In this document: positions 29,930 to 58,965 of the stretch, piece after piece | Layout: each line of letters begins with the position of its first letter | How positions within the stretch are numbered: the stretch's first letter is position 1 | Assembly (NCBI GenBank): GCA_030390025.1 | Contig: CM059431.1 | Span: 110,424,001 to 110,488,000, forward strand | DNA: 64,000 bases | Source of the DNA: Squalus acanthias | Taxonomy: Eukaryota | Direction of reading: 5' to 3' | Notes under the pieces: model-generated | What the model was told of the DNA's origin: nothing | The model's database searches: none | What the model saw: the letters and a program-made list of their open reading frames with translations, nothing else | Position numbers and translations under genes: made by a program

Positions 29930-30304
29930 ATTGTCCGCACACAGAGCAAACTTGGTGTCATAATAATGGTTCTTTTAACCAAATAACAACCCAACAATTC
30001 CCTGAAGAAATAGCAACAGTTAAATAATAGAGACGGGGAAAAATGAGCGATGTGGCTGAGTCAGGAACAAGTTGCAGTTTATGAATGATGTCATTAGATC
30101 AAACATTTACTTCTTTAAATTTGTATATAAGTTGGAATTTGGATCCATGTCTGGAATTATGAATAATCTTGTATCCGAATTACTTACTGCTGCAAGTCTT
30201 CAGACTAGTATCTATCACAGTGACAGTGATTTATGCAATAAAATTCAGTCATGGTCTGTTTAAAATTATTATTTGTACCAATAAGAAGATTTAAAGCTTG
30301 TCTT

Positions 30305-31598
30305 TGTAGGGGGTGGTGTGGTAGGGGTCAGCCTTCACCTCTGACTCAGTGAGCGGTTCGAATCGCTCCCACGCCCCTGGTTCCAGACCTTGGACTTATT
30401 TAGGGGTTGTGAATAAAGATGCAGTAGACAACAGGTTCTGATGAAAGAATTTTGACTTTATTAAAAGAAAAAGGTAACAAACTTAAAACACACTTAAATG
30501 CTTAAACACAGGTTGGGGAACATGCGGTACAGGCGAGGGAAATAACCTTAGAAGAATACTTCACCCCTTCCAATCCCACTTCACTAGCTAGGTTGGACTC
30601 TGGAGAACCAGGGATAATGCTCACCAAACGAATCCTTGACAGTTGAGAGTTAGGGTTTAGAGTCTTTTGAGTAAAAGGTTTTGTAAGGCCCTTGTTGCCG
30701 TGAGGTGTCCGATGGTCACTGAGGCAGTCGCTCTGGTTTCTTCTTGCGTGTCGGATTGCTTGTGAAGCTGTTGGCCTTCTTTGTTGAACTTCTTGCTGTA
30801 ACTCTGCCTCTGTTTAAACTGTCTTCTTCCGAGCTGTGGAACTGCCTTCTTGCAGAACTGTGGAAACTGCCTTCTGCCTGCTTGTCCTGAACTCTGTAAC
30901 TCTGAAAACAGGCTTTTCGATTGAACTGCAGAACTGCCTTCTGTTGAACTTGAACTGTAACTGGAGAACTGTAACTCCCTTCTTACTGAAACTGTTGTAA
31001 CTGCTTGATGGGCCTTCAATTATATTAAATTGAAGTGGCCTTGTCAAAACCAACTCAAATCCTGGTCATTGTAAGACCTCGTTAACAGTAACGACTTTAC
31101 TAAGTGTCAAAATGGCTTGCGTCCTGTCGATCTCTTCGGTTGATTACAGGTGATTGGTGGGGTAATGGGTGTACTGGATGTTTTATTGTTTTCAGGCTTC
31201 TGGCACCCTGTTTGCGCCTGGGAATTTCAAAAGGGGTCTTGGATTATTCATATTTGGATGTGTATGTGAGGTTTTGGGTGAGGCTCTTCTTGGTTGGATT
31301 GCAGTGCAAACAATTCCCAAACAGCTTGACTGGGCCCCAATACCCAAAAGCTGTCCATTGCCTCGCCACACCCCTCCGCAGCCTGTCTTGTCTCTGTGAC
31401 TGTGAGGTTTCCCAATAGTAACATCCAAAGTCATTTTCCTCAGGGGTTTTCTGCCCTGGTCCTTAAGAATGTCCAAAACTGAGGTTTTTACCTCAAATAC
31501 TTCACTCAGGTCCCATCATCCCAAATTTGTATGAAAAATCAAAAATCACCCCTTTTAGGGTTCTGTTCGAGTTTCTGGGGGATTTTGCAAAGCCTACA
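30305..31598 (-). mobile_element. Solo LTR (1294 bp), same family as 41971-43261
   Basis: TGTAGG...CCTACA termini; flanks TCTT/CCTT (4-bp TSD, one mismatch). First ~850 bp match 41971-42830. Confidence 0.9.
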
Positions 31599-32056
31599 CC
31601 TTTAAGAAACACCGGTTGACTTTGTACTGGGAAAGTTATTCTGAAGACAATCTAGGTTGTCACTTTTATGGTTTAATTACCAGCACATACTGTTTTATGA
31701 TGTTAGTAGAAACTTGATATAATTTTCCTTTAGGTGAATTGAAACGAAAAGTAAAACTGCGGTTTTACTGTGTTGGAAAAATGTGTGGTAATTAGAGCCA
31801 TCTGGGACGCTGCAAATTTGGAGCAGGTCAACGCTCTGAATTGTTAACTGTGTTTCTCACTCCACAGATTCTACCTGACTTGATGAGTATTTCCAGCATT
31901 TTCTGTGTTTTTGTGAAATGATGTGGTTGCATTTCTTCAGTCTTGCTCTGGCCTTGGGGATCTCTTGTTGGTGCTGTTCAGACTTCTGTCGCTTTATTCG
32001 GGTTGTGCCCTGTAAGCACAGGCTACTCAAAAAATTCTGTCTCTGTGATTTGGGAT

Positions 32057-32497: not shown

Positions 32498-33111
32498 AGC
32501 GGATGAGATCAAAGCTAGGTCACAGGGGGCAGCCACAATTCCAACAGGGCCTCCAGACTTTGGGAACTAGAAATAAACCTTATAGCCCTTCCCTGCACTA
32601 CCTCCTTGGTGACCAGTCCAGAACCCAATACTCATGGTGTACAGTATCAGTATAATGATACTGACCTATACTCGACTGATTTGGCAATATAGTTTAGCAT
32701 TTTGTTAGCTTTCGGATTGCCACCCTACCACGACCTTACATGCTAAGTGTTGATCTAATACTCCCAGATCAGAAAAGTCAAGGCTGACAGAAGCTTGCCC
32801 TTCTGTAACCATGGCGACTGCCATTTACTGGGCTATTATAAAACACTTTATGATTCGGGTTTGCATAGTATTGAATTTCATCACTTTTTTTTTGCAACTT
32901 AGCTTGAACCAGTGCACTAACGTTTTAATTACTAACAGTAATTTCTTTCTTTTTGTCTTATTATTTTCTTTCAACTTTCTTTCTCTAACTGGTTCCCGCG
33001 TAACAGGCAAAGGTAAATAGGAAAACTGCTGAGCAGCGAGGCAATCTGCTGTGAGGGGGGAATGGTCTGAGGCCCATGAAACTAACCAGGGCTGTTTTAT
33101 TGCAGTGTAAT

Positions 33112-33440
33112 TGCCATTCACACCTCCTCTGGACCCGTCTTTTGTTTCTTAACTTGTCCCATTACCATCCCCTTTTGCCTTGCACCATCATCCCTTTTGT
33201 CATTTAATCTCTCCTGCCTTCCATCCTATCACAGACCTTCCCTTTTGTTCTTTCCTCCCACACTCACCCCACCTTTTCCCTGCCCCTGCACTTGCTTAAA
33301 ATCTGTTACATCTCCAACTTTTTCCAGTTCTGATGAAAGTTCATCGACCTGAAACGTTAACTCTGTTTCTCGCTCCACAGATGCTGCCTGACCTGCTGAG
33401 TGTTTCCAGCATTTTCTATTTTTTTTTTAAATTTCAGTTT
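33112..33440 (+). mobile_element. Penelope-like element 3' end (pseudo-LTR region)
   Basis: Highly similar to 58090-58420, which follows a GIY-YIG C-terminus. Carries a hammerhead motif. Confidence 0.85.
33326..33362 (+). ncRNA. Minimal type I hammerhead ribozyme motif
   Basis: AGTT-CTGATGA-A-AGTTC ATC GACCT-GAAA CG TT-AACT: intact core, stem I AGTT/AACT, stem II with one mismatch. Confidence 0.75.
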
Positions 33441-39958: not shown

Positions 39959-40159
39959 TATGTAGGGGGTGGTGTGTGGGGTAAGCCTTCACCTCTGACT
40001 CAGTGAGCGGTTCGAATCACTCCCACGCCCCTGGTTCTAGACTTTGGACTTATTTAGGGGTTATTAACAAAGATGCAGTAGACAACAGGTTTTGATGAAA
40101 GAGTTTTGACTTTATTAAAAGGAAAAAAAAGGTAACAAACTTAAAACACACTTAGATGC

Positions 40160-41968
40160 TTAAACACAGGTTGGGGAACACACGGTACAAGCGAGGGAAA
40201 TACCCTTAGAAGAATACTTCACCCCTCCCAATCCCACTTCACTAGCTAGGTTGGACTCTGGAGAACCAGGGATAATGCTCACCAAATGAATCCTTGGGGA
40301 CTTCTTTGCTAGGCTATCCTTCCAGGGATTCCTACAGTCCTTTCTCCAGTGCCCACTCTTCCCGCACCCTGAAGCAGTTACGCTTTGTGTCGGAGGTTTA
40401 CCACCTTCCTGGTGCCACTCCTTCTTATCCTGACTGGGCTTTATTTCATGCACCTTTCCTTTTGGTGGGGGCTCTTCAGCCCCCCTACCGTTCCGGTAGG
40501 CCAGGTTCAGCTGCCTGATCACTGCCTCCTCGGTGACCCGGGGGTCTTTCGGGTCAAACCAAAGCTCAGCCTTGGTTTTTATTCGTGGCAAGCTGTTTGC
40601 CACTAGGCTACGGAGCCAGTGGGCCAGCTCGTCCCTGTTCAGGTTAGCTCGGTCGAGATCCCCATTACAAGCACCCCTGTACACAGGCCACAGCCTGTCT
40701 GCGAAAGCCTGTGGGGTCTCCCCTGCGAACTGCACTGTCCTCTCCAACCGGGAGAAGGGACTACCATCATTCATCCCCATAGCCTCTAAAACCTCCTCTC
40801 TGACGGCAGCATACCCATTCTGCCCTCTCTTGCTCTCGGCAGAGAGGGACTGGTATAGCTTGCCATCTAGTGAGAACAAGAGCATTTTTGCCATCTCAGC
40901 ATCATCACAGTCGTTGATGCCTGCTCCCTGTTCCACTTCCATGAAGTGGACTGAGGGGTCCCCCTTTTGTGTAAGTTTACTCAGGTGGCTTACCATAGCC
41001 CTAAGCTGTTGTGTAACGTGGGGAGCCACAAATTGATTTTCAAGGGGTCCCTGACCTCCACCACCTGTGGGCGGGCCAAACTTTTGCTCTCATGCTGGGC
41101 ACATCGGCCCCGGCTCCGACCTCTCCTGCATCGGTTTGCCCCCCTCTCCCCGCTGCCAGACCGAGTCAAAACTCAGCGCCACAGGTGGTGGTGTGCACTC
41201 CCTGTCAGCCTCACAGATTGTCTGCCCCTCCTGCTGCCTAACCAAGCTTCTCCTTGGCGCCACAGGTGGTGGTCGAACAGTTTCCCCTTGCTCTTCCAGG
41301 TCTACCTGGGCCGCACCCAGGCTTATCAGGCACACCATGCCTTTTGCCTTGGACAGAGCAAGGTTCAGACTCTCAATCTGCTGCTGACAGGGGCCGTGGT
41401 CCCCTACCTCAAACCCCCTAGTGCTGGCTACTCTGTAAGCTGTCTGAACGTCTTTTAACTTCTCTTTAAATTCCCTTAATTGCTTGGCAGGGCGGGTGTT
41501 CTCTTCCCGTAATGCCAGTTCACTACTTTTGGCCTCGGTGGCCTGACACTGGAGGTATCCCTTACTGGCACGGTGTTGCTCTATTATCTGCAACTGTTCC
41601 TGATCTTTTGAGGTTAGCTCTGCTAACAACCTCTCCCCTGCTATGGCTCTGGCATGGGACAGTTGGCTTTCTTCCCTTAGCTCTTCTGTGAGAGTCTGAA
41701 TGCGCTTCCCCATAAGCTGCATCTGTTTCTGGGAGCAGACCAACCATATGGCCTTTTCCACAGACTTTTTATATTCCTTGCTCTCAGTCCATGTAGCTGC
41801 AGCGTCCATAGGACATTCAGCATGCCACAGCCTGAGTACCCATTTCTTGGTTATATTAACCTTTTTGTACACATAGGATGACATCCTCTCTTCCATTTTT
41901 GTTCTCTCCTCAAAACCAGCGTTTACTGCTTCACAACCCTTTTGCCAAGGTTCCGCCACGGTCGCCAT
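40160..41968 (-). pseudogene. gag: gag with one in-frame TGA (41090-41092) and eroded CCHC zinc knuckle, fused to LTR sequence
   Basis: ORFs 41968-41090 and 41029-40160 are in the same frame (60 nt apart). Coiled-coil region, capsid-like helical region, then CGKSGHWRKDC. Confidence 0.8.
41955..41967 (-). promoter_or_regulatory. Primer-binding site, tRNA-Arg(TCG)-like
   Basis: TGGCGACCGTGGC is complementary to ..GCCACGGTCG-CCA, which resembles vertebrate tRNA-Arg(TCG) 3' ends (from memory). Confidence 0.65.
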
Positions 41969-43554
41969 TTTGTAGGGGGTGGTGTGTGGGGTAAGCCTTC
42001 ACCTCTGACTCAGTGAGCGGGTCGAATCGCTCCCACGCCCCTGGTTCTAGACCTTGGACTTATTTAGGGGTTGTGAACAAAGATGCAGTAGACAACAGGT
42101 TTTGATAAAAGAGTTTTGACTTTATTAAAAGGAAAAAAAAGGTAACAAACTTAAAACACACTTAGATGCTTAAACACAGGTTGGGGAACACATGGTACAA
42201 GCGAGGGAAATAACCTTAGAAGAATACTTCACCCCTCCCAATCCCACTTCACTAGCTAGGTTGGACTCTGGAGAACCAGAGATAATGCTCACCAAATGAA
42301 TCCTTGACAGTTGAGAGTTAGGGTTTAGAGTCTTTTGAGTAAAAGGTTTCGTAAGGCCCTTGTTGCCGCGAGGTGTCCGATGGTCACTGAGGCAGTCGCT
42401 CTGGTTTCTTCTTGCGTGTCGGTCTGCTTGTGAAGCTGTTGGCCTTCTTTGTTGAACTTCTTGCTGTAACTCTGCCTCTGTTTAAACTGTCTTCTTCCGA
42501 GCTGTGGAACTGCCTTCTTGCAGAACTGTGGAAACTGCCTTCAGCCTGCTTGTCCTGAACTCTGCAACTCCAGCACTGACTTTTTGCTGAAAACAGGCTT
42601 TTCGATTGAACTGCAGAATTGCCTTCTGTTGAACTTGAACTGTAACTGGAGAACTCGAACTTGTAACTGTTGTAACTGCTTGATGGGCCTTCAATTATAC
42701 TAAATTGAAGTGGCCTTGTCAAAACCAACTCAAATCCTGGTCATTGTAAGACCTCGTTAACAGTAACGACTTTACTAAGTGTCAAATGGCTTGCGTCCTG
42801 TCGATCTCTTCGGTTGATTACAGGTGATTGGTTTCGTGTTTTGGGTTTCTAGGCTGGACTCAGGTTTTTCTATAGAATGTTCCTGAGCGATTTGAATTAT
42901 GCATGGTTTTGATGGGTCTGTGATAGGTTTTAATGGGCCTGTGTTTTGGGTGGGGCTGCCTTCTCCCAGGGTCTATTGTCCAAATGTTAATGCTTGCTGG
43001 GGCTTGAGTGAGGTCATCCTGATTCCCCAGACAATGTAAGTTAACTGCAATACCCAAAATTGCTATTACAGAGGTCGAGCCCACCTCCTGTGCAGCCTTT
43101 TCTCCCTTACAGGTCCAGACATGTCTTTTTAAAATGCCAAAACTTGGTTTTTGGTCTTAAATTCCTTATGTTAGGCCCAAATGCATTTTTATCACTCTGG
43201 GGTAGTTCCAAAGTCCTTTTTCCTTAGGTTTTGGGGATCTGCAAATTTTGGAAACCTTACAGACCCCCCTTCGATACTTTCAGTTCACTACAGTATCGTC
43301 CTGGGTGGACAAAATTCCTGATCCCAGAAAGCCAACCTTCCCCTGTATTACCTAAACTAAAAACCCAAACATACATTCCCCTTTAAATGTGGTGTTTCAG
43401 GTACATACAGGTAAGAATCAATAATACATACACTTCCAAGCACGGAGGGGGTCCAACACCCCTACACCACTTGGAAAACTATAGTACATACATAGTAAAA
43501 TAATACATGATCACAAACTTTATTCATTTTAATAAAAACAAATTAGGGCTCGCC

Positions 43555-49792: not shown

Positions 49793-50303
49793 GGGGTAAA
49801 AATTCAGTTGGTTGCGCCTCCCGTTAGCGCCTTAAGAGGGCGCTAATGGGGCGCAAAGCCGCTAACGCCCGGGCGCAGCGATGTTTGCGCTGCTCGGGAA
49901 CTTAACTAGAGATTGTGCGGTGGCGCTAAAACTTACCGCTGTGACCACCTGCGCGCGCAGATTGTGACGTCATTCCATGGTGCAACACCCTTGTGGCGCC
50001 CCGGAGCGGAAATTGAGTGGCGCCCCCTGCCTTACCGCCTGGTGCATCCAACGACCGGAAGACTGGAACGCTATCAATCGCTGTGGGGCTGGGGGGGGCG
50101 CTATTTAAAGGGGGCCTCTTCCTGTCTTTTTCTGTGGTCGACATTTTTGCACCACTCATTCTGAGAGAGAGAGAGAGATTCGGAGAGAGAGAAAGAGAGA
50201 CTTCTGCATTGACTCAACGCTTTGTGAGGTAGTTTTGCCTACTGATCCTAACTTCGCTGGTACTTTAGTTGCTGTCCTTCATTACTTTGCTTGCAAAGAG
50301 AAT

Positions 50304-51464
50304 ATGGGGGCTGCACTGATTGGGTGCGTCGTCCTGCTCCAGCTGAATCGGAGGATACAGAGACGCAGAGAGAGAGTGGCAATGATGGCCAAACGGAGGA
50401 GGGCCAACAGGCGTATGTACAGGAGAGCTTACCCTCCCAGGGTATATCGTGAACAGCTCTCCTACATTCATATGTCTGAGGAGCTGTGTTTGCGAAGGCT
50501 GCGATTCAGCAAGGAGGTGGTCACTGAGCTCTGCCACCTGCTGCAGCCAGATCTGCAGCCTCAACTGAGGTCCAGGACGTCTCTGTCGGTGGCAGTGAAG
50601 GTCACAGTGGCTCTCAACTTTTACGCTACTGGCTCATTTCAAGCTGCTGCTGGGGACCTCGCCAATATCTCCCAGTTCGCGGTGCATTGCTGCATCCGGC
50701 AGGTCACAAATGCCCTCTTTAAAAGGAGACGAGAGTTCATCTCTTTCCCCATGACCCCAGACAAGCAGCGTGACCGCGCTCTGGGCTTTGCGAGGGTAGC
50801 GGGCTTCCCCATGGTGCAGGGCGCCATTGACTGCACGCATGTGGCTTTGCGTGCTCCGCATGAGAATGCCGAGGAATTCCGGAACAGAAAGGGGTTCCAT
50901 TCCTTGAATGTTCAGTTGGTCTGTGACCACAGACAGCTGATACTCGCTGTCAATGCCCACTATCCTGGCAGCTGCCACGATGCTTTTATCCTGCGCCAGA
51001 CTACTGTGGCAGAACTTTTCGAGGCACCGCATCAGCCAGTTGGTTGGCTTCTCGGGGACAAGGGGTATGCATTGAGCACCTGGCTGATGACACCGCTCCG
51101 TACGCCCAACACCCCTGCTGAGCTGCGGTACAATGAGAGCCATCAAGCTACCAGGAACATAATTGAGCGCACAATCGGCGTGCTGAAGCAACGGTTCCGC
51201 TGTCTCGACCATTCTGGAGGAGCCCTGCAGTACTCGCCTGAGCGAGTATCCAACTTCGTAGTCGTGTGCTGCATGTTGCATAACATGGCAATCGTCAGGA
51301 CCCAGCCAATGCCACCAGGCCTTGGAGCACCACCAGAGGAGGAGGAGGAAGAGGAGGAAGAGGACGAGGAGGATGATCATCAGCAGCACCAAGGCGGGAG
51401 GGCGGCCCACAATGGTGAAACTGCAAGGGCCGTCCGTCAACGGCTAATAGCAAGCCGCTTCTAG
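50304..51464 (+). CDS. Harbinger DDE transposase (HARBI1-like family), 386 aa, intact
   Basis: ATG at 50304. ALNFYATGSFQ helix-turn-helix region, [57 protein letters not shown]. No stops. Confidence 0.95.
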   Translation: MGAALIGCVVLLQLNRRIQRRRERVAMMAKRRRANRRMYRRAYPPRVYREQLSYIHMSEELCLRRLRFSKEVVTELCHLLQPDLQPQLRSRTSLSVAVKVTVALNFYATGSFQAAAGDLANISQFAVHCCIRQVTNALFKRRREFISFPMTPDKQRDRALGFARVAGFPMVQGAIDCTHVALRAPHENAEEFRNRKGFHSLNVQLVCDHRQLILAVNAHYPGSCHDAFILRQTTVAELFEAPHQPVGWLLGDKGYALSTWLMTPLRTPNTPAELRYNESHQATRNIIERTIGVLKQRFRCLDHSGGALQYSPERVSNFVVVCCMLHNMAIVRTQPMPPGLGAPPEEEEEEEEEDEEDDHQQHQGGRAAHNGETARAVRQRLIASRF

Positions 51465-51709: not shown

Positions 51710-53757
51710 CTAAACAAAAGTTGGACCACGAACCTCGGCCTTTAATAAAAAAATGACCAGCATTTTGTCACACCTCCGACTTTTTGCCCTTCGAGGGTGA
51801 TCTCCTTCCCTTGCGCACTTCCCCCCTTCTAACAATACTGCTCCTCCGTAATGGGACCTCAGTGGCTGCAGCAAGGCTGGTGGAAGGCTGCTGCTCGTCA
51901 GACCCTGACACTGCAGATGCCCCTGAAGGACGGCCTCAACCAGTTCTGGGTTGGAGGGCCCGGCTGCAGACTGCACCAACTCTGCATGGGCGGCAGCAGT
52001 CTGTCCTACAGGCGGTGGCAAGTGCAGTGGAGAAGTGACAGTGTTGGCAGCAGGAATGCTGTCATCGTGAGAGAGGACAGCAACTCCCTGCTCGCCCGAC
52101 ACACTGGCACTCCCACGGGGCAGCACTTCAGCATCCGGAGCAATCTGCTGGAGAACAGATTGCTGGCCTGCTGCGGCGCGGTGACAGCCCCGGGGACATG
52201 TGCACGAACCATCGAGGTTGGCAGCAGTCTGTGCTCGCGTGGCCTCAATCTGAGTCTGCATGAGAGCAGTCAGAGATGGGATCACGGCAGCCAGTGACTG
52301 AATTGCAGCACTAAGCGTTAGTGTGGCATCCGCCTGTGCTACAGCGAAGTGCTCCACACTCCTTGCCAGTGACTCAATGCATTCGGGCACCCTTCCCACT
52401 GCACCCATGAGCTCAGTGTGCATGCCCACCGCCTGGGTGTTCATTTCTGCGATCAGCCGCTCCTCCTCTGCGTCCATTGCAGTAGGAGTGTCTGGCATAC
52501 TCTCCCTCTGGGGAGAAGGCCCCCGTTCTTCCCTACCCCCATGGCGTTGCTGCAGCCCGCTGGGTCCTGGAGCTTCACCCTCATCAGACCCTTCCCCCCT
52601 GCTCCCCTCCAGGGAAGGCGTGTTCCCAGTGTGGGCATGGGCTTCCTCGGGAGAGGGTGGCACTGATGCTCCGGCTTCCTCTTCCTCCTCGGCTGCAGCA
52701 TCACTCCCAGTGGCAGCTTCAGGGCCCGTCTCCTCAGCTGGTGAATCACCATCTGAAAGCAGGGAGGTACAAGAGTGGCTTTAGCGTGAGGACAGGGTGG
52801 CAGTAAGGGAGGAATAAGTGCAGCGAGTTAGCAAGTTGGATTGAAAGTGTCAAAGGCTGGTGTTGTGAGGGACAAGTGGAAGGACAGAGGACAAAAAGGT
52901 GATGACCTTACCATTGCTGTCCAGAACGGGATCGGCGTCTCCAGTGGCGACGGGACCGATCACCCGGCTTGCCACAATCCTGTGGACGCGCTCCTCAAGA
53001 TCGCTGAAGGGTTGCAGCTGAGGCCGCCCTCCACCTGTCCGTTGCTGCTGTCTCCGATTATGCGCCAGCTTGGCCTGTAAGAAAAAGGACAGCATCTGAG
53101 TAAATATACAGCCATGGTCTTGCCTGATGTGCCTCCCATAGGTGAATAGCCCTTACTGTATGCAGCCATGGTCTTGCCTGATGTGCCTCCCATAGGTGAA
53201 TAGCCCTTACTGTATGCAGCCATGGTCTTGCCTGATGTGCCTCCCATAGGTGAATAGCCCTTACTGTATGCAGCCATGGTCTTGCCTGATGTGCCTCCCA
53301 TAGGTGAATAGCCCTTACTGTATGCAGCCATGGTCTTGCCTGATGTGCCTCCCATAGGTGAATAGCCCTTGCTGTATGCAAAGTGTGGAATGTGTGTGTG
53401 TGTTTCATGAAAGGGCCATAGGTGTTGGATGAGTGTTGTGCATTGGTGTTTTAAGACCCTCTGGCCATAGAGTGAGGTTGAGATGGAGGGATGGAGAGGT
53501 ATTGAGAAAAAGCCACTCACCCTGACGACCCGAGTGAGGTCGTTGAACTTTTTGCGGCATTGAGTATGGATCCTGGGCACCATGCTCCTGGAGGAGACGC
53601 TCTGAGCCACCTCCCTCCACACTCTTCTGAACTCGCGTGGCAAAGGCCTCCTGCCACTCTCAGGGAAGAGTATACATCTTCTGCGCTCCACCGCGCCAAC
53701 CAGAGCATCCAAGGCCCGCTCGGTGAAGCGATGAGCTCGTTCTCTCACCCTCTCCAT
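51710..53757 (-). CDS. Harbinger Myb/SANT (trihelix) DNA-binding protein, 3 exons: 53757-53521, 53074-52912, 52752-51710
   Basis: Exon 1 RAHRFTERALDALV..WREVAQSVS..QCRKKFNDL. Introns GTGAGT..TTCTTACAG (phase 0) and GTAAG..GCTTTCAG (phase 1) keep the frame, giving 480 aa as read. A frameshift near 51945 is probable. Confidence 0.85.
53109..53378 (+). repeat. 54-bp tandem repeat x5 in intron 1 of the Myb gene
   Basis: CAGCCATGGTCTTGCCTGATGTGCCTCCCATAGGTGAATAGCCCTTACTGTATG at 53109, 53163, 53217, 53271 and 53325; nearly perfect. Confidence 0.97.
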
Positions 53758-54121
53758 CCTTGGCAGCAAAATGGATTCACAGGTCTCTCCAGGCCGAGAT
53801 TCAAGGCTGCAATGAGCAGGGTGTGGCTGGGGAGCAAGTTGGCCCCCCCCGCTTTAAGAAGTGGCCGGCGCCAGTGTGTCTGTGTTCCCTCGCTAACTGG
53901 CAGCAGCTGCGCTGCGCTCGCGCGCTGAGTTAGCGCCTCACTGCTCGGCCTTTGCGCCTTAAGACAGGTGTGCAGCGCCTGATTTAGCGCTCCACTCACC
54001 TCCCGGGGCGGTAAAAGTGAAGTTTCCAGTCAGTGCCGATAATTAGCGCCAGGCGCTAATATTTGCGTCCAGACGATATTTGCGCCCAAATGGGGCGCGA
54101 CCTAATTTTTCCCCCTAAATC

Positions 54122-54339
54122 TCTTAATGTCTCTACTTACCATAGTATTCCCTCCCCCCAGCCTCCCCCTTGCATTTTTATCTGTTTCATTTCCTGCTCC
54201 TTTCTCAGTTCTGATGAAGGGTTTCGACCTGAACCGTTAACTCTGTTTCTCTCTCCACGGATGTTGCCTGGCCTGCTGAGTTTTTCCAGCGTTTTCTGTT
54301 GTTATTTCAGATTTCCAGCATCCGCAGTATTTTGCTATC
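54122..54339 (+). mobile_element. Penelope-like 3' end with degenerate hammerhead (54207-54242)
   Basis: AGTT-CTGATGA-A-GGGT TTCG ACCT-GAAC CG TT-AACT. Downstream matches 58345-58442. Flanked by a GTCTAAATC duplication. Confidence 0.8.
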
Positions 54340-57600: not shown

Positions 57601-57957
57601 TAGTTGTTTTCTTGAACATTGTGGTCATGTTTCTGATATGTACATCCATCTGAATTGGCAGCGGTTCAATTTCTCGTTGGGATCGGCAGGTTGATTGCTT
57701 GCTGGTTGAAGGTTTTAAACCATGATTATTGTGGCTTGCTTCTCTTGGTTACTTTAACTTAACAGCGAGTATCACAAACCTGCCATGAGGAAACTATGCC
57801 ACACATATGTCCATTAATTGTTTGCCTTGTATAAACAATTATTTAATTAAGGACCGTAACAGATGACATGTTTCCTGCTCCCGGTTGAATTCATAAATAT
57901 GGTTAGATTTCCCAAAAGTCAGCCCAGCCTTTTTGTTTAACTCAGAAGCAGGTAGTC

Positions 57958-58450
57958 CACGTAAGCTCGAGGAACAGCACCTTATCTTTCGATTAGGCGC
58001 TTTACTGCCTTCTGGACTCAACATCAAGTTCAACAATTTCAGACCATAACCTCGGCCCCTATTTTTTCACATGGCAGCTGTTGATGTTTCTGCCATTCCC
58101 ATTTACACCTCTTCTAGACCCATCTTTTGTTTTTAACTTGTCCCATTACCATGTCCTTTTGATTTGTACAATCATACCTTTTGTCATTTAATCTCTCCTG
58201 CTTTCCACCCTTTCCACCCTATCACAGACCTCCCTTTTGTTCTTTCCTCCCCTCCCCCCTTTCCCTGCCCCCTGCACTTGCTTAAAACCTGTTACATCTC
58301 TAACTTTTTCCAGTCCTGACGAAAGGTCATCGACCTGAAACGTTGACTCTGTTCCTCTCTCCACAGATGCTGCCTGACCTGCTGAGTGTTTCCAGCAATT
58401 TCTGTTTTTACTTCAGATTTCCAGCATCCGCAGTATTTTGCTTTTGTATT
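57958..58450 (+). mobile_element. Penelope-like element 3' end with GIY-YIG endonuclease C-terminus
   Basis: 57960-58049 translates RKLEEQHLIFRLGALLPSGLNIKFNNFRP*, with the E..I..L....P.GLN ending of PLE GIY-YIG domains. Pyrimidine-rich UTR and hammerhead follow. Confidence 0.88.
58312..58348 (+). ncRNA. Minimal type I hammerhead ribozyme motif (best copy)
   Basis: AGTC-CTGACGA-A-AGGTC ATC GACCT-GAAA CG TT-GACT: intact core, perfect stems I and II, palindromic ACGT stem III. Confidence 0.8.
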
Positions 58451-58965
58451 AGTCTTTTTTTCATAGTCCCTCTGACTTTCAAATCTTTCTTCCTTCTCCT
58501 TTATATCTTTTCAATTTTCTGCTTGTTTTTCTTAGCCCTAGATTTGTCATATGGCTCTTTTTAAAGTCTTATTTCAATGTCATTTGATAAGGTGTCACAT
58601 AGCATGATTATTAATAAAATGAAGGCATTCTCTTATTAAAAGCACTCTGGCTAGGTAGCTGCACCCCTTGACTGGTGGAATATCTCTAATAATGTCCTGC
58701 ATAAAAACATTTCCCATTGTTTGCCTACTGCCTTATCTGCCACCTTTTTCTAATTCTTCCGGGCTATTTAAAAAAAATATATTTGAAATTTGCTTTTTTT
58801 CCCACTCAAGTACCTTTATTTCTCACTGTTCCCTCCCCTTTTCAATTTATATATCAAACCTAATTATCTCACGGTCACTGTTTCCCCAACCTCACATTAC
58901 CCATTTGCTGTAGTCCTTTTCCTAGGACTAAGTCCATCACTAAGTCTCATCATCACTAAGACTAA

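Follow-up and report, generated by a model that had tools for sequence, protein, structure and literature searches.

The Hammerhead Motif and its Carrier Element

Within the 64-kb window (the whole stretch of Squalus acanthias DNA that was analysed), a minimal type I hammerhead motif with all core bases is found on the + strand by direct reading and by a structural descriptor, inside a 5'-truncated end-piece of a Penelope-like element; the coordinates of these and related features are collected in Table 1. Stem I is formed by AGUC (58312-58315) and GACU (58345-58348) with four of four standard pairs, and stem II by the arms 58324-58328 and 58332-58336 with five of five standard pairs and a 3-nt loop, while a single unpaired base, the A at 58323, stands between positions 9 and 10.1. 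The GAAA is followed by C-G, then U-U, and then the 3' arm of stem I. The palindrome ACGU replaces loop III, and four intermolecular pairs (helix III of a dimer) are predicted for it. According to hammerhead numbering, the cleavage site would follow 58344, in the triplet GUU. The pair at positions 10.1-11.1 is A-U and thus departs from the consensus trend of G10.1-C11.1; since A10.1-U11.1 occurs in 3 of the 56 representatives given by Cervera and De la Pena (2014, PMC4209133), the absence of the G-C pair is not exclusive to this copy.

Table 1. Features of the hammerhead locus and of the related copies in the window
Feature	Position	Strand	Basis
Hammerhead motif, minimal type I, core complete	58312-58348	+	sequence reading, strict descriptor
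Core C3-A9 (CUGACGA, 58316-58322) and extra A (58323)	58316-58323	+	descriptor
Stem II, 5 bp, opening pair A10.1-U11.1 instead of the usual G-C	58324-58336	+	folding
GAAA (58337-58340), palindrome ACGU (58340-58343), predicted cleavage after 58344	58337-58344	+	descriptor, folding
5'-truncated Penelope-like end-piece (endonuclease C-terminus, 3' repeat, hammerhead, tail), about 488 bp	57958-58445	+	contig depth, family-piece starts, loose ends
Last 29 codons and stop of the element's RT + GIY-YIG frame	57960-58049	+	translation, protein homology
Optional 35-nt tail between the two fixed 3' ends of the family	58411-58445	+	loose-end pile-ups
Second copy; hammerhead 33326-33362, core intact, U.C mismatch in stem II; short end	33110-33435	+	sequence, self-comparison, descriptor, folding
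Third copy; hammerhead 54207-54242, GAAC for GAAA; reaches long end	54150-54336	+	sequence, self-comparison, descriptor, folding
Fourth copy, degenerate; 5' half of core lost; short end	31825-31919	+	self-comparison

When a strict minimal-hammerhead descriptor was run over both strands of the 64 kb, the motif at 58312 was the only match, and none of 300 dinucleotide shuffles contained any. Relaxing the descriptor by one core and one stem II mismatch added only the copies at 33326 and 54207. The loose pattern CUGANGA...GAAA was matched 10 times against 4.83 expected, which is weak by itself. The complete minimal hammerhead that the first-pass annotation had placed at 58312 is therefore borne out by the strict descriptor, and its assignment to the minimal type I hammerheads and its placement in a Penelope-like element's 3' repeat are supported by the descriptor, by the published consensus and flanks, and by peptide homology.

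The stop codon of the element's frame (58047-58049) precedes stem I by 262 nt, in agreement with the earlier estimate of about 260 bp after a GIY-YIG C-terminus, and the motif has the expected terminal-repeat location behind the RT-EN frame. A phmmer search with the window peptide returned six matches, five of which share the peptide, four of these near their C-terminus; the sixth (P0001), an unrelated Ig-repeat protein, was dropped. One match led to three proteins in which RT motifs are followed by a GIY-YIG-like region, and Pfam GIY-YIG was detected in two of these three at E 0.047-0.048, under the curated cut-off. The window peptide aligns to the end of P0009 with 63% identity (E 2e-10). 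P0008 leads on to P0012 and P0013, in which RVT_1 scores above the cut-off and GIY-YIG just under it (E 0.0003), and the relatives reached include an RT protein of Chiloscyllium punctatum. No direct alignment of the window peptide to full-length P0013 was obtained, Pfam gave nothing on the 29-36-aa window peptide, and a word-indexed search with a 49-aa query scored none of 31 candidates. On the strength of this peptide kinship to RT + GIY-YIG proteins, we assign the element to the EN+ Penelope-like retrotransposons, its putative RT + GIY-YIG frame being read through a chain of homology from the last 29 codons, the only ones in the window. A CX2-5CxxC linker between RT and EN is a feature of the Neptune clade (PMC8557442); it is seen in P0013 (889 aa, RT plus GIY-YIG), and the closer, shark-like P0007-P0009 as well as P0012 are without that stretch. 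The element is possibly of Neptune type, and its named relatives point to a cartilaginous fish as the likely source of the genome. In the gene models P0004 and P0006 the endonuclease tail of the element is fused to host proteins (a VKOR-domain protein and a skate neuromedin-U receptor, respectively), probably as a result of annotation read-through into the repeat.

Family Size, 3' Ends and Tail

Contigs of four public runs (X5, X7, X16 and X19, i.e., 4 of 24 runs; X5 was covered to about 55%) were aligned to 57700-58700 at 80% likeness, and 48,694, 90,927, 222 and 4,365 contigs were matched, respectively. Depth was in the tens in the flanks and 10^5-10^7 inside the element, with peaks of 7 million (X5) and 16 million (X7); contig depth gives no copy number and contigs drop rare variants, and the Penelope-like family is very large. 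Family pieces start at 57958-57963 and contig sequence continues upstream of that point, which marks the window copy as 5'-truncated there. At the other end, loose ends pile up at 58410 (441 contigs in X5, 781 in X7) and at 58445/58447 (362/366 contigs in X5, 526/573 in X7). The family thus has two fixed 3' ends 35-37 nt apart, at distances of 66 and 101-103 nt downstream of the predicted cleavage site; two of the four window copies stop at the short end and two at the long end. The interval of 35-37 nt agrees with the optional 30-40-bp 3' tail that Penelope-like elements carry (PMC8557442), and the tail of the Anolis element is described as lying between two reverse-transcription start sites (PMC11167929).

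Several contigs switch strand inside or just after the motif (58316-58360), which suggests fold-back insertions with junctions clustered at the ribozyme; such opposite-strand joints fit the inverted end-pieces known for the Penelope-like group. Just 5' of the element (within 57892-57957), the bin 57904-57937 had zero cover in all four runs, including that of organism A, which bears the same label. Pattern scans for further copies gave none in viral_contigs and none in genome_contigs, and the 48 loci from metagenome_contigs were rejected as chance matches, the motif or the family flanks being present in 0 of 48.

Related Copies and the Stem I Double Change

Three further copies lie in the window; the fourth copy of the set (31825-31919) had been missed previously. 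The core CUGANGA...GAAA...NUH is present at 58312 and 33326, and absent from 54207 (GAAC) and 31825; the stem II mismatch of the second copy is U.C at 33340/33348, and only the 58312 hammerhead is intact (one of four). In the third copy A15.1 is replaced by C at 54234, and the resulting GAAC both loses A15.1 and breaks the ACGU palindrome. This core-broken copy is the nearest to 58312, at 4,105 nt upstream, and the next spacing is 20,881 nt. The string GAAA-CG-UU, earlier ascribed to all three hammerhead copies, thus holds for 58312 and 33326 and fails for 54207. Nor does stem II stay paired among the copies as had been stated: 33326 has the U.C mismatch, and the stem II differences of 54207 are one-sided.

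The first-pass annotation had also pointed to a double change in stem I and had read it as compensatory covariation under selection. The change itself is real, i.e., U-A in 33326 and 54207 and C-G in 58312. It is the only two-sided change among the four window copies (pair 58315/58345), stem II having none, and the observed covariation count was reached by 127 of 500 shuffles. In the contigs, T at 58315 makes up 99.43, 98.99, 100 and 99.82% of depth in X5, X7, X16 and X19, respectively, from which it follows that the C-G stem I pair is rare in the family; C at this site amounts to at most 0.57, 1.01, 0 and 0.18% in the same runs. At 58345, A accounts for 95.9, 76.2, 89.0 and 95.5% of depth and non-A for 4-24%, so that C at 58315 is at least 7 times rarer than non-A at 58345 in every run. 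With one such cell, a count equalled by 127 of 500 shuffles and a C that is rare in 4/4 runs, the claim of covariation as a sign of selection is not sustained.

At no fewer than 11 of the 26 element sites listed, 94% or more of X5 depth has a letter other than that of the 58312 copy, and five of these 11 near-private sites are T-to-C or A-to-G. For five A-U pairs, the chance of a double change in one of them is about 0.1-0.65% per copy, a rate similar in order of magnitude to the ceiling on a C-bearing sub-lineage. As the contigs drop rare variants and carry no linkage between 58315 and 58345, two origins of the pair are not separable: the C-G pair is likely to represent either two substitutions of the 58312 copy's own or a very small sub-lineage. 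By either origin, it is not covariation between the main subfamilies.

A different reading would make the C-G pair the mark of a distinct master subfamily, with a compensatory stem I mutation under selection for catalysis. The change does keep pairing and falls in the only fully intact copy, a chance double change of the above rate is unlikely, and in organism C as much as 24% of depth at 58345 is non-A (a figure not split by letter); a G at this site would give a U.G wobble, a plausible intermediate. Against this, a C-G subfamily would align best to 58312, and non-T at 58315 is still no higher than 0.57, 1.01, 0 and 0.18% in the four runs; variants at the subfamily level do show by the same contig method, as at site 58388 with 23-67% of depth; and the shuffles equal the window covariation as often as stated. 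We therefore regard a master subfamily as unlikely and favour the origin within this copy or a very small sub-lineage. Selection on the master elements is plausible by analogy with the hammerhead class generally, and the C-G pair does not show it.

Predicted Folding and Cutting Ability

In context, stem II of the 58312 copy is predicted to form with a pair probability of 0.83-0.84, and a competing helix between G5-G8 and C15.2-U17 with a probability of 0.71-0.83; in the latter, core, triplet and palindrome would all be buried. For the active dimer, the skeleton is calculated at -14.3 kcal/mol versus -25.7 kcal/mol for the best cofold, i.e., 11 kcal/mol higher, in a nearest-neighbour model that leaves out the tertiary energy of the hammerhead core. 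The hammerhead skeleton energy of this copy is -8.1 kcal/mol, and those of the other two copies are +0.8 and -3.5 kcal/mol. Because a competing helix is predicted and the nearest partner is both 4,105 nt away and core-broken, cutting of read-through transcripts by the 58312 copy appears unlikely on this modelling. The earlier suggestion that these copies could act as cleavage sites in any + strand transcript through the locus is accordingly weakly supported at best, with one of four copies intact, a core misfold predicted, no intact neighbour, and published motifs of the class failing to cut as monomers or in the absence of element protein. Taking all lines together, the locus holds a complete minimal hammerhead within a truncated, 488-bp end of a Penelope-like retrotransposon of very high copy number, and this copy is likely a passive relic that has lost the ability to cut RNA, a reading that we consider highly probable as a whole.

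It is very improbable that the host has co-opted the 58312 copy to cut a + strand transcript, either in cis or in trans with other transcripts of the family. Such use would accord with every core base being intact, with a stem I stronger than in the other copies, with weak hints in contigs of organisms C and F of an old, shared insertion, and with the presence of family sequence in run X19, which is guessed to be RNA and may be DNA. It is opposed by the predicted misfold over the core, by the distance to the core-broken nearest copy, by the poor in vitro cutting of the hammerhead class, and by the finding that, of 385 non-repeat frames, none of the 150 longest holds a host exon.

Only a remote chance is given to a more elaborate proposal, in which an insertion apparently common to related species would have kept its catalytic bases and gained a stronger stem I through host use as a transposon-dose-sensing switch, by trans-pairing of ACGU with family RNA. 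As to the age of the insertion, contigs of organisms C and F continue past the 3' flank into the tail by 18 and 25 nt, extents that fall under the 31-letter bar of the contig method, and the flanks differ from organism C at 8 of 192 and 16 of 272 positions; these data hint weakly at an insertion that is old and shared across species. An orthologous motif was found in none of the contig pieces listed.

Finally, a chance look-alike within the repeat, devoid of ribozyme-derived structure, would be in keeping with the lack of an Rfam hammerhead family match at E up to 5 and with a fold z-score of only -2.07 (6 of 200 shuffles equally good), but this is next to negligible given the empty shuffles of the strict descriptor and the fit of the extra base between 9 and 10.1, the palindromic 15.2-16.2, the U-rich 5' flank and the Penelope-repeat location to the published class.

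Other Features of the Window

The window is repeat-rich and self-similar over 41% of its length, and its repeats include LINE RT and endonuclease frames as well as a Harbinger-like transposase and Myb frame. The 150 longest non-repeat frames, among which short exons could escape detection, matched in Pfam only two LINE endonucleases. In the Harbinger-like element, an open 451-aa DDE_Tnp_4 frame (50109-51464, + strand; E 9.6e-40) faces a Myb/SANT frame (52960-53853, - strand), and a near-perfect tandem repeat with a unit of about 54 bp occupies 53105-53380. A possible right end of this element (54085-54117) is located about 90 nt before the 54207 hammerhead and does not coincide with the cleavage triplet of that copy; on the left side, the best candidate agreed at 18/35 and was no match. 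On the - strand, two adjacent frames of 302 and 309 aa (40160-41998) gave no Pfam match and are flanked by direct repeats at 30303-31158, 39961-40296 and 41969-42832 (93-97% identical); together they resemble an LTR element's gag region and long terminal repeats.

Two coincidences within the motif were also followed. Core positions A6-N7-G8 read AUG in 33326 and 54207 and ACG in 58312, and the frame set by them is open through the element end in 58312 (58319-58447, 43 open codons) and in 33326 (33333-33434); a core AUG opening the next frame is unsupported, since 17% of 5000 shuffles were as open. Between 58343 and 58366, a pentamer resembling a branch point shares bases with the 3' arm of stem I, and after it come a pyrimidine tract and a CAG that directly precedes an ATG. 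This arrangement was rejected as a branch point and splice acceptor since it arises in 60% of 2000 shuffles of the pyrimidine-rich stretch, and no splice joint was present there among the 15 of 228 contig joints listed.

Comparison with Known Systems

Minimal hammerheads (min-HHR) in the terminal repeats of metazoan Penelope-like elements were described by Cervera and De la Pena (2014, PMC4209133), with an anatomy of CUGANGA plus one base, helix II, GAAA, a palindrome for helix III, NUH and a short helix I. In that account, most copies are solitary and derive from truncated elements, and the genomes of coelacanth and Xenopus each contain thousands; the monomer tested did not cut, and dimers cut weakly. 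The 58312 motif shares with this class, as presented there, the type I topology, the extra base, GAAA, the two-base palindrome, NUH, the 4-bp helix I and the U-rich 5' flank; it differs in having A10.1-U11.1 where the consensus is G-C. Neither Table S1 nor Fig. S3 of that paper (PMC4209133) contains a cartilaginous fish. In all, the 58312 hammerhead is an ordinary member of a class known since 2014.

The second system is PAc, a Poseidon-type element of Anolis carolinensis, for which Frangieh et al. (2024, PMC11167929) report that the hammerhead cut only with the element protein and that uncut RNA was the main insertion substrate. As far as PAc is described there, the family studied here resembles it in having the hammerhead just upstream of two fixed ends with a 30-40-nt tail between, and in the whole, uncut motif of inserted copies. 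PAc is intact and was assayed, whereas the 58312 copy retains 29 frame codons only; PAc is of Poseidon type, whereas the relatives of the present element are possibly Neptune-like.

Animal non-LTR retrozymes, whose type I hammerheads are related to Penelope repeats, are the third system (Li, Clavereau and Pollet, bioRxiv 10.64898/2026.07.22.740005), and hammerhead retrozymes are reported in that preprint from one chondrichthyan genome, the one sampled. As characterised in it, such retrozymes form tandem arrays with a motif per unit, in contrast to the solitary window copies, 4.1 and 20.9 kb apart. We rejected a non-LTR retrozyme identity on the spacings of 4,105 and 20,881 nt and the presence of one intact motif. 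A literature search returned no paper devoted to hammerheads in shark Penelope elements, by which absence from print is not established. A study by Lunse, Weinberg and Breaker (RNA Biol 14:1499), judging by its title, reportedly treats small Penelope-associated hammerhead variants that cleave as dimers.

Proposed Mechanism and Significance

By analogy with these systems, we infer double-hammerhead cutting by active elements in tandem: two motifs would pair via their ACGU palindromes into a double hammerhead which, probably with the help of the element protein, would cleave the RNA of the element itself after GUU. The start of reverse transcription was likely 66 or about 101 nt past the cut site, on a template left uncut, and an early stop would then have produced short dead copies with whole ribozymes; the motifs would be whole in such copies because copying starts downstream of the uncut site. 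For Penelope-like elements, copying from an antisense template has likewise been put forward in print, and it would explain the whole motifs without uncut sense RNA.

The finding adds to the class described in 2014 a cartilaginous-fish family with an A-U closing pair, and agrees with the 2024 model of insertion from two fixed points downstream of an uncut ribozyme. As it stands it matters little, and it would matter more only if one copy cut host RNA. With its great size, the family lends itself to a real covariation test and to the question of what maintains in these elements a ribozyme dispensable for insertion in vitro.
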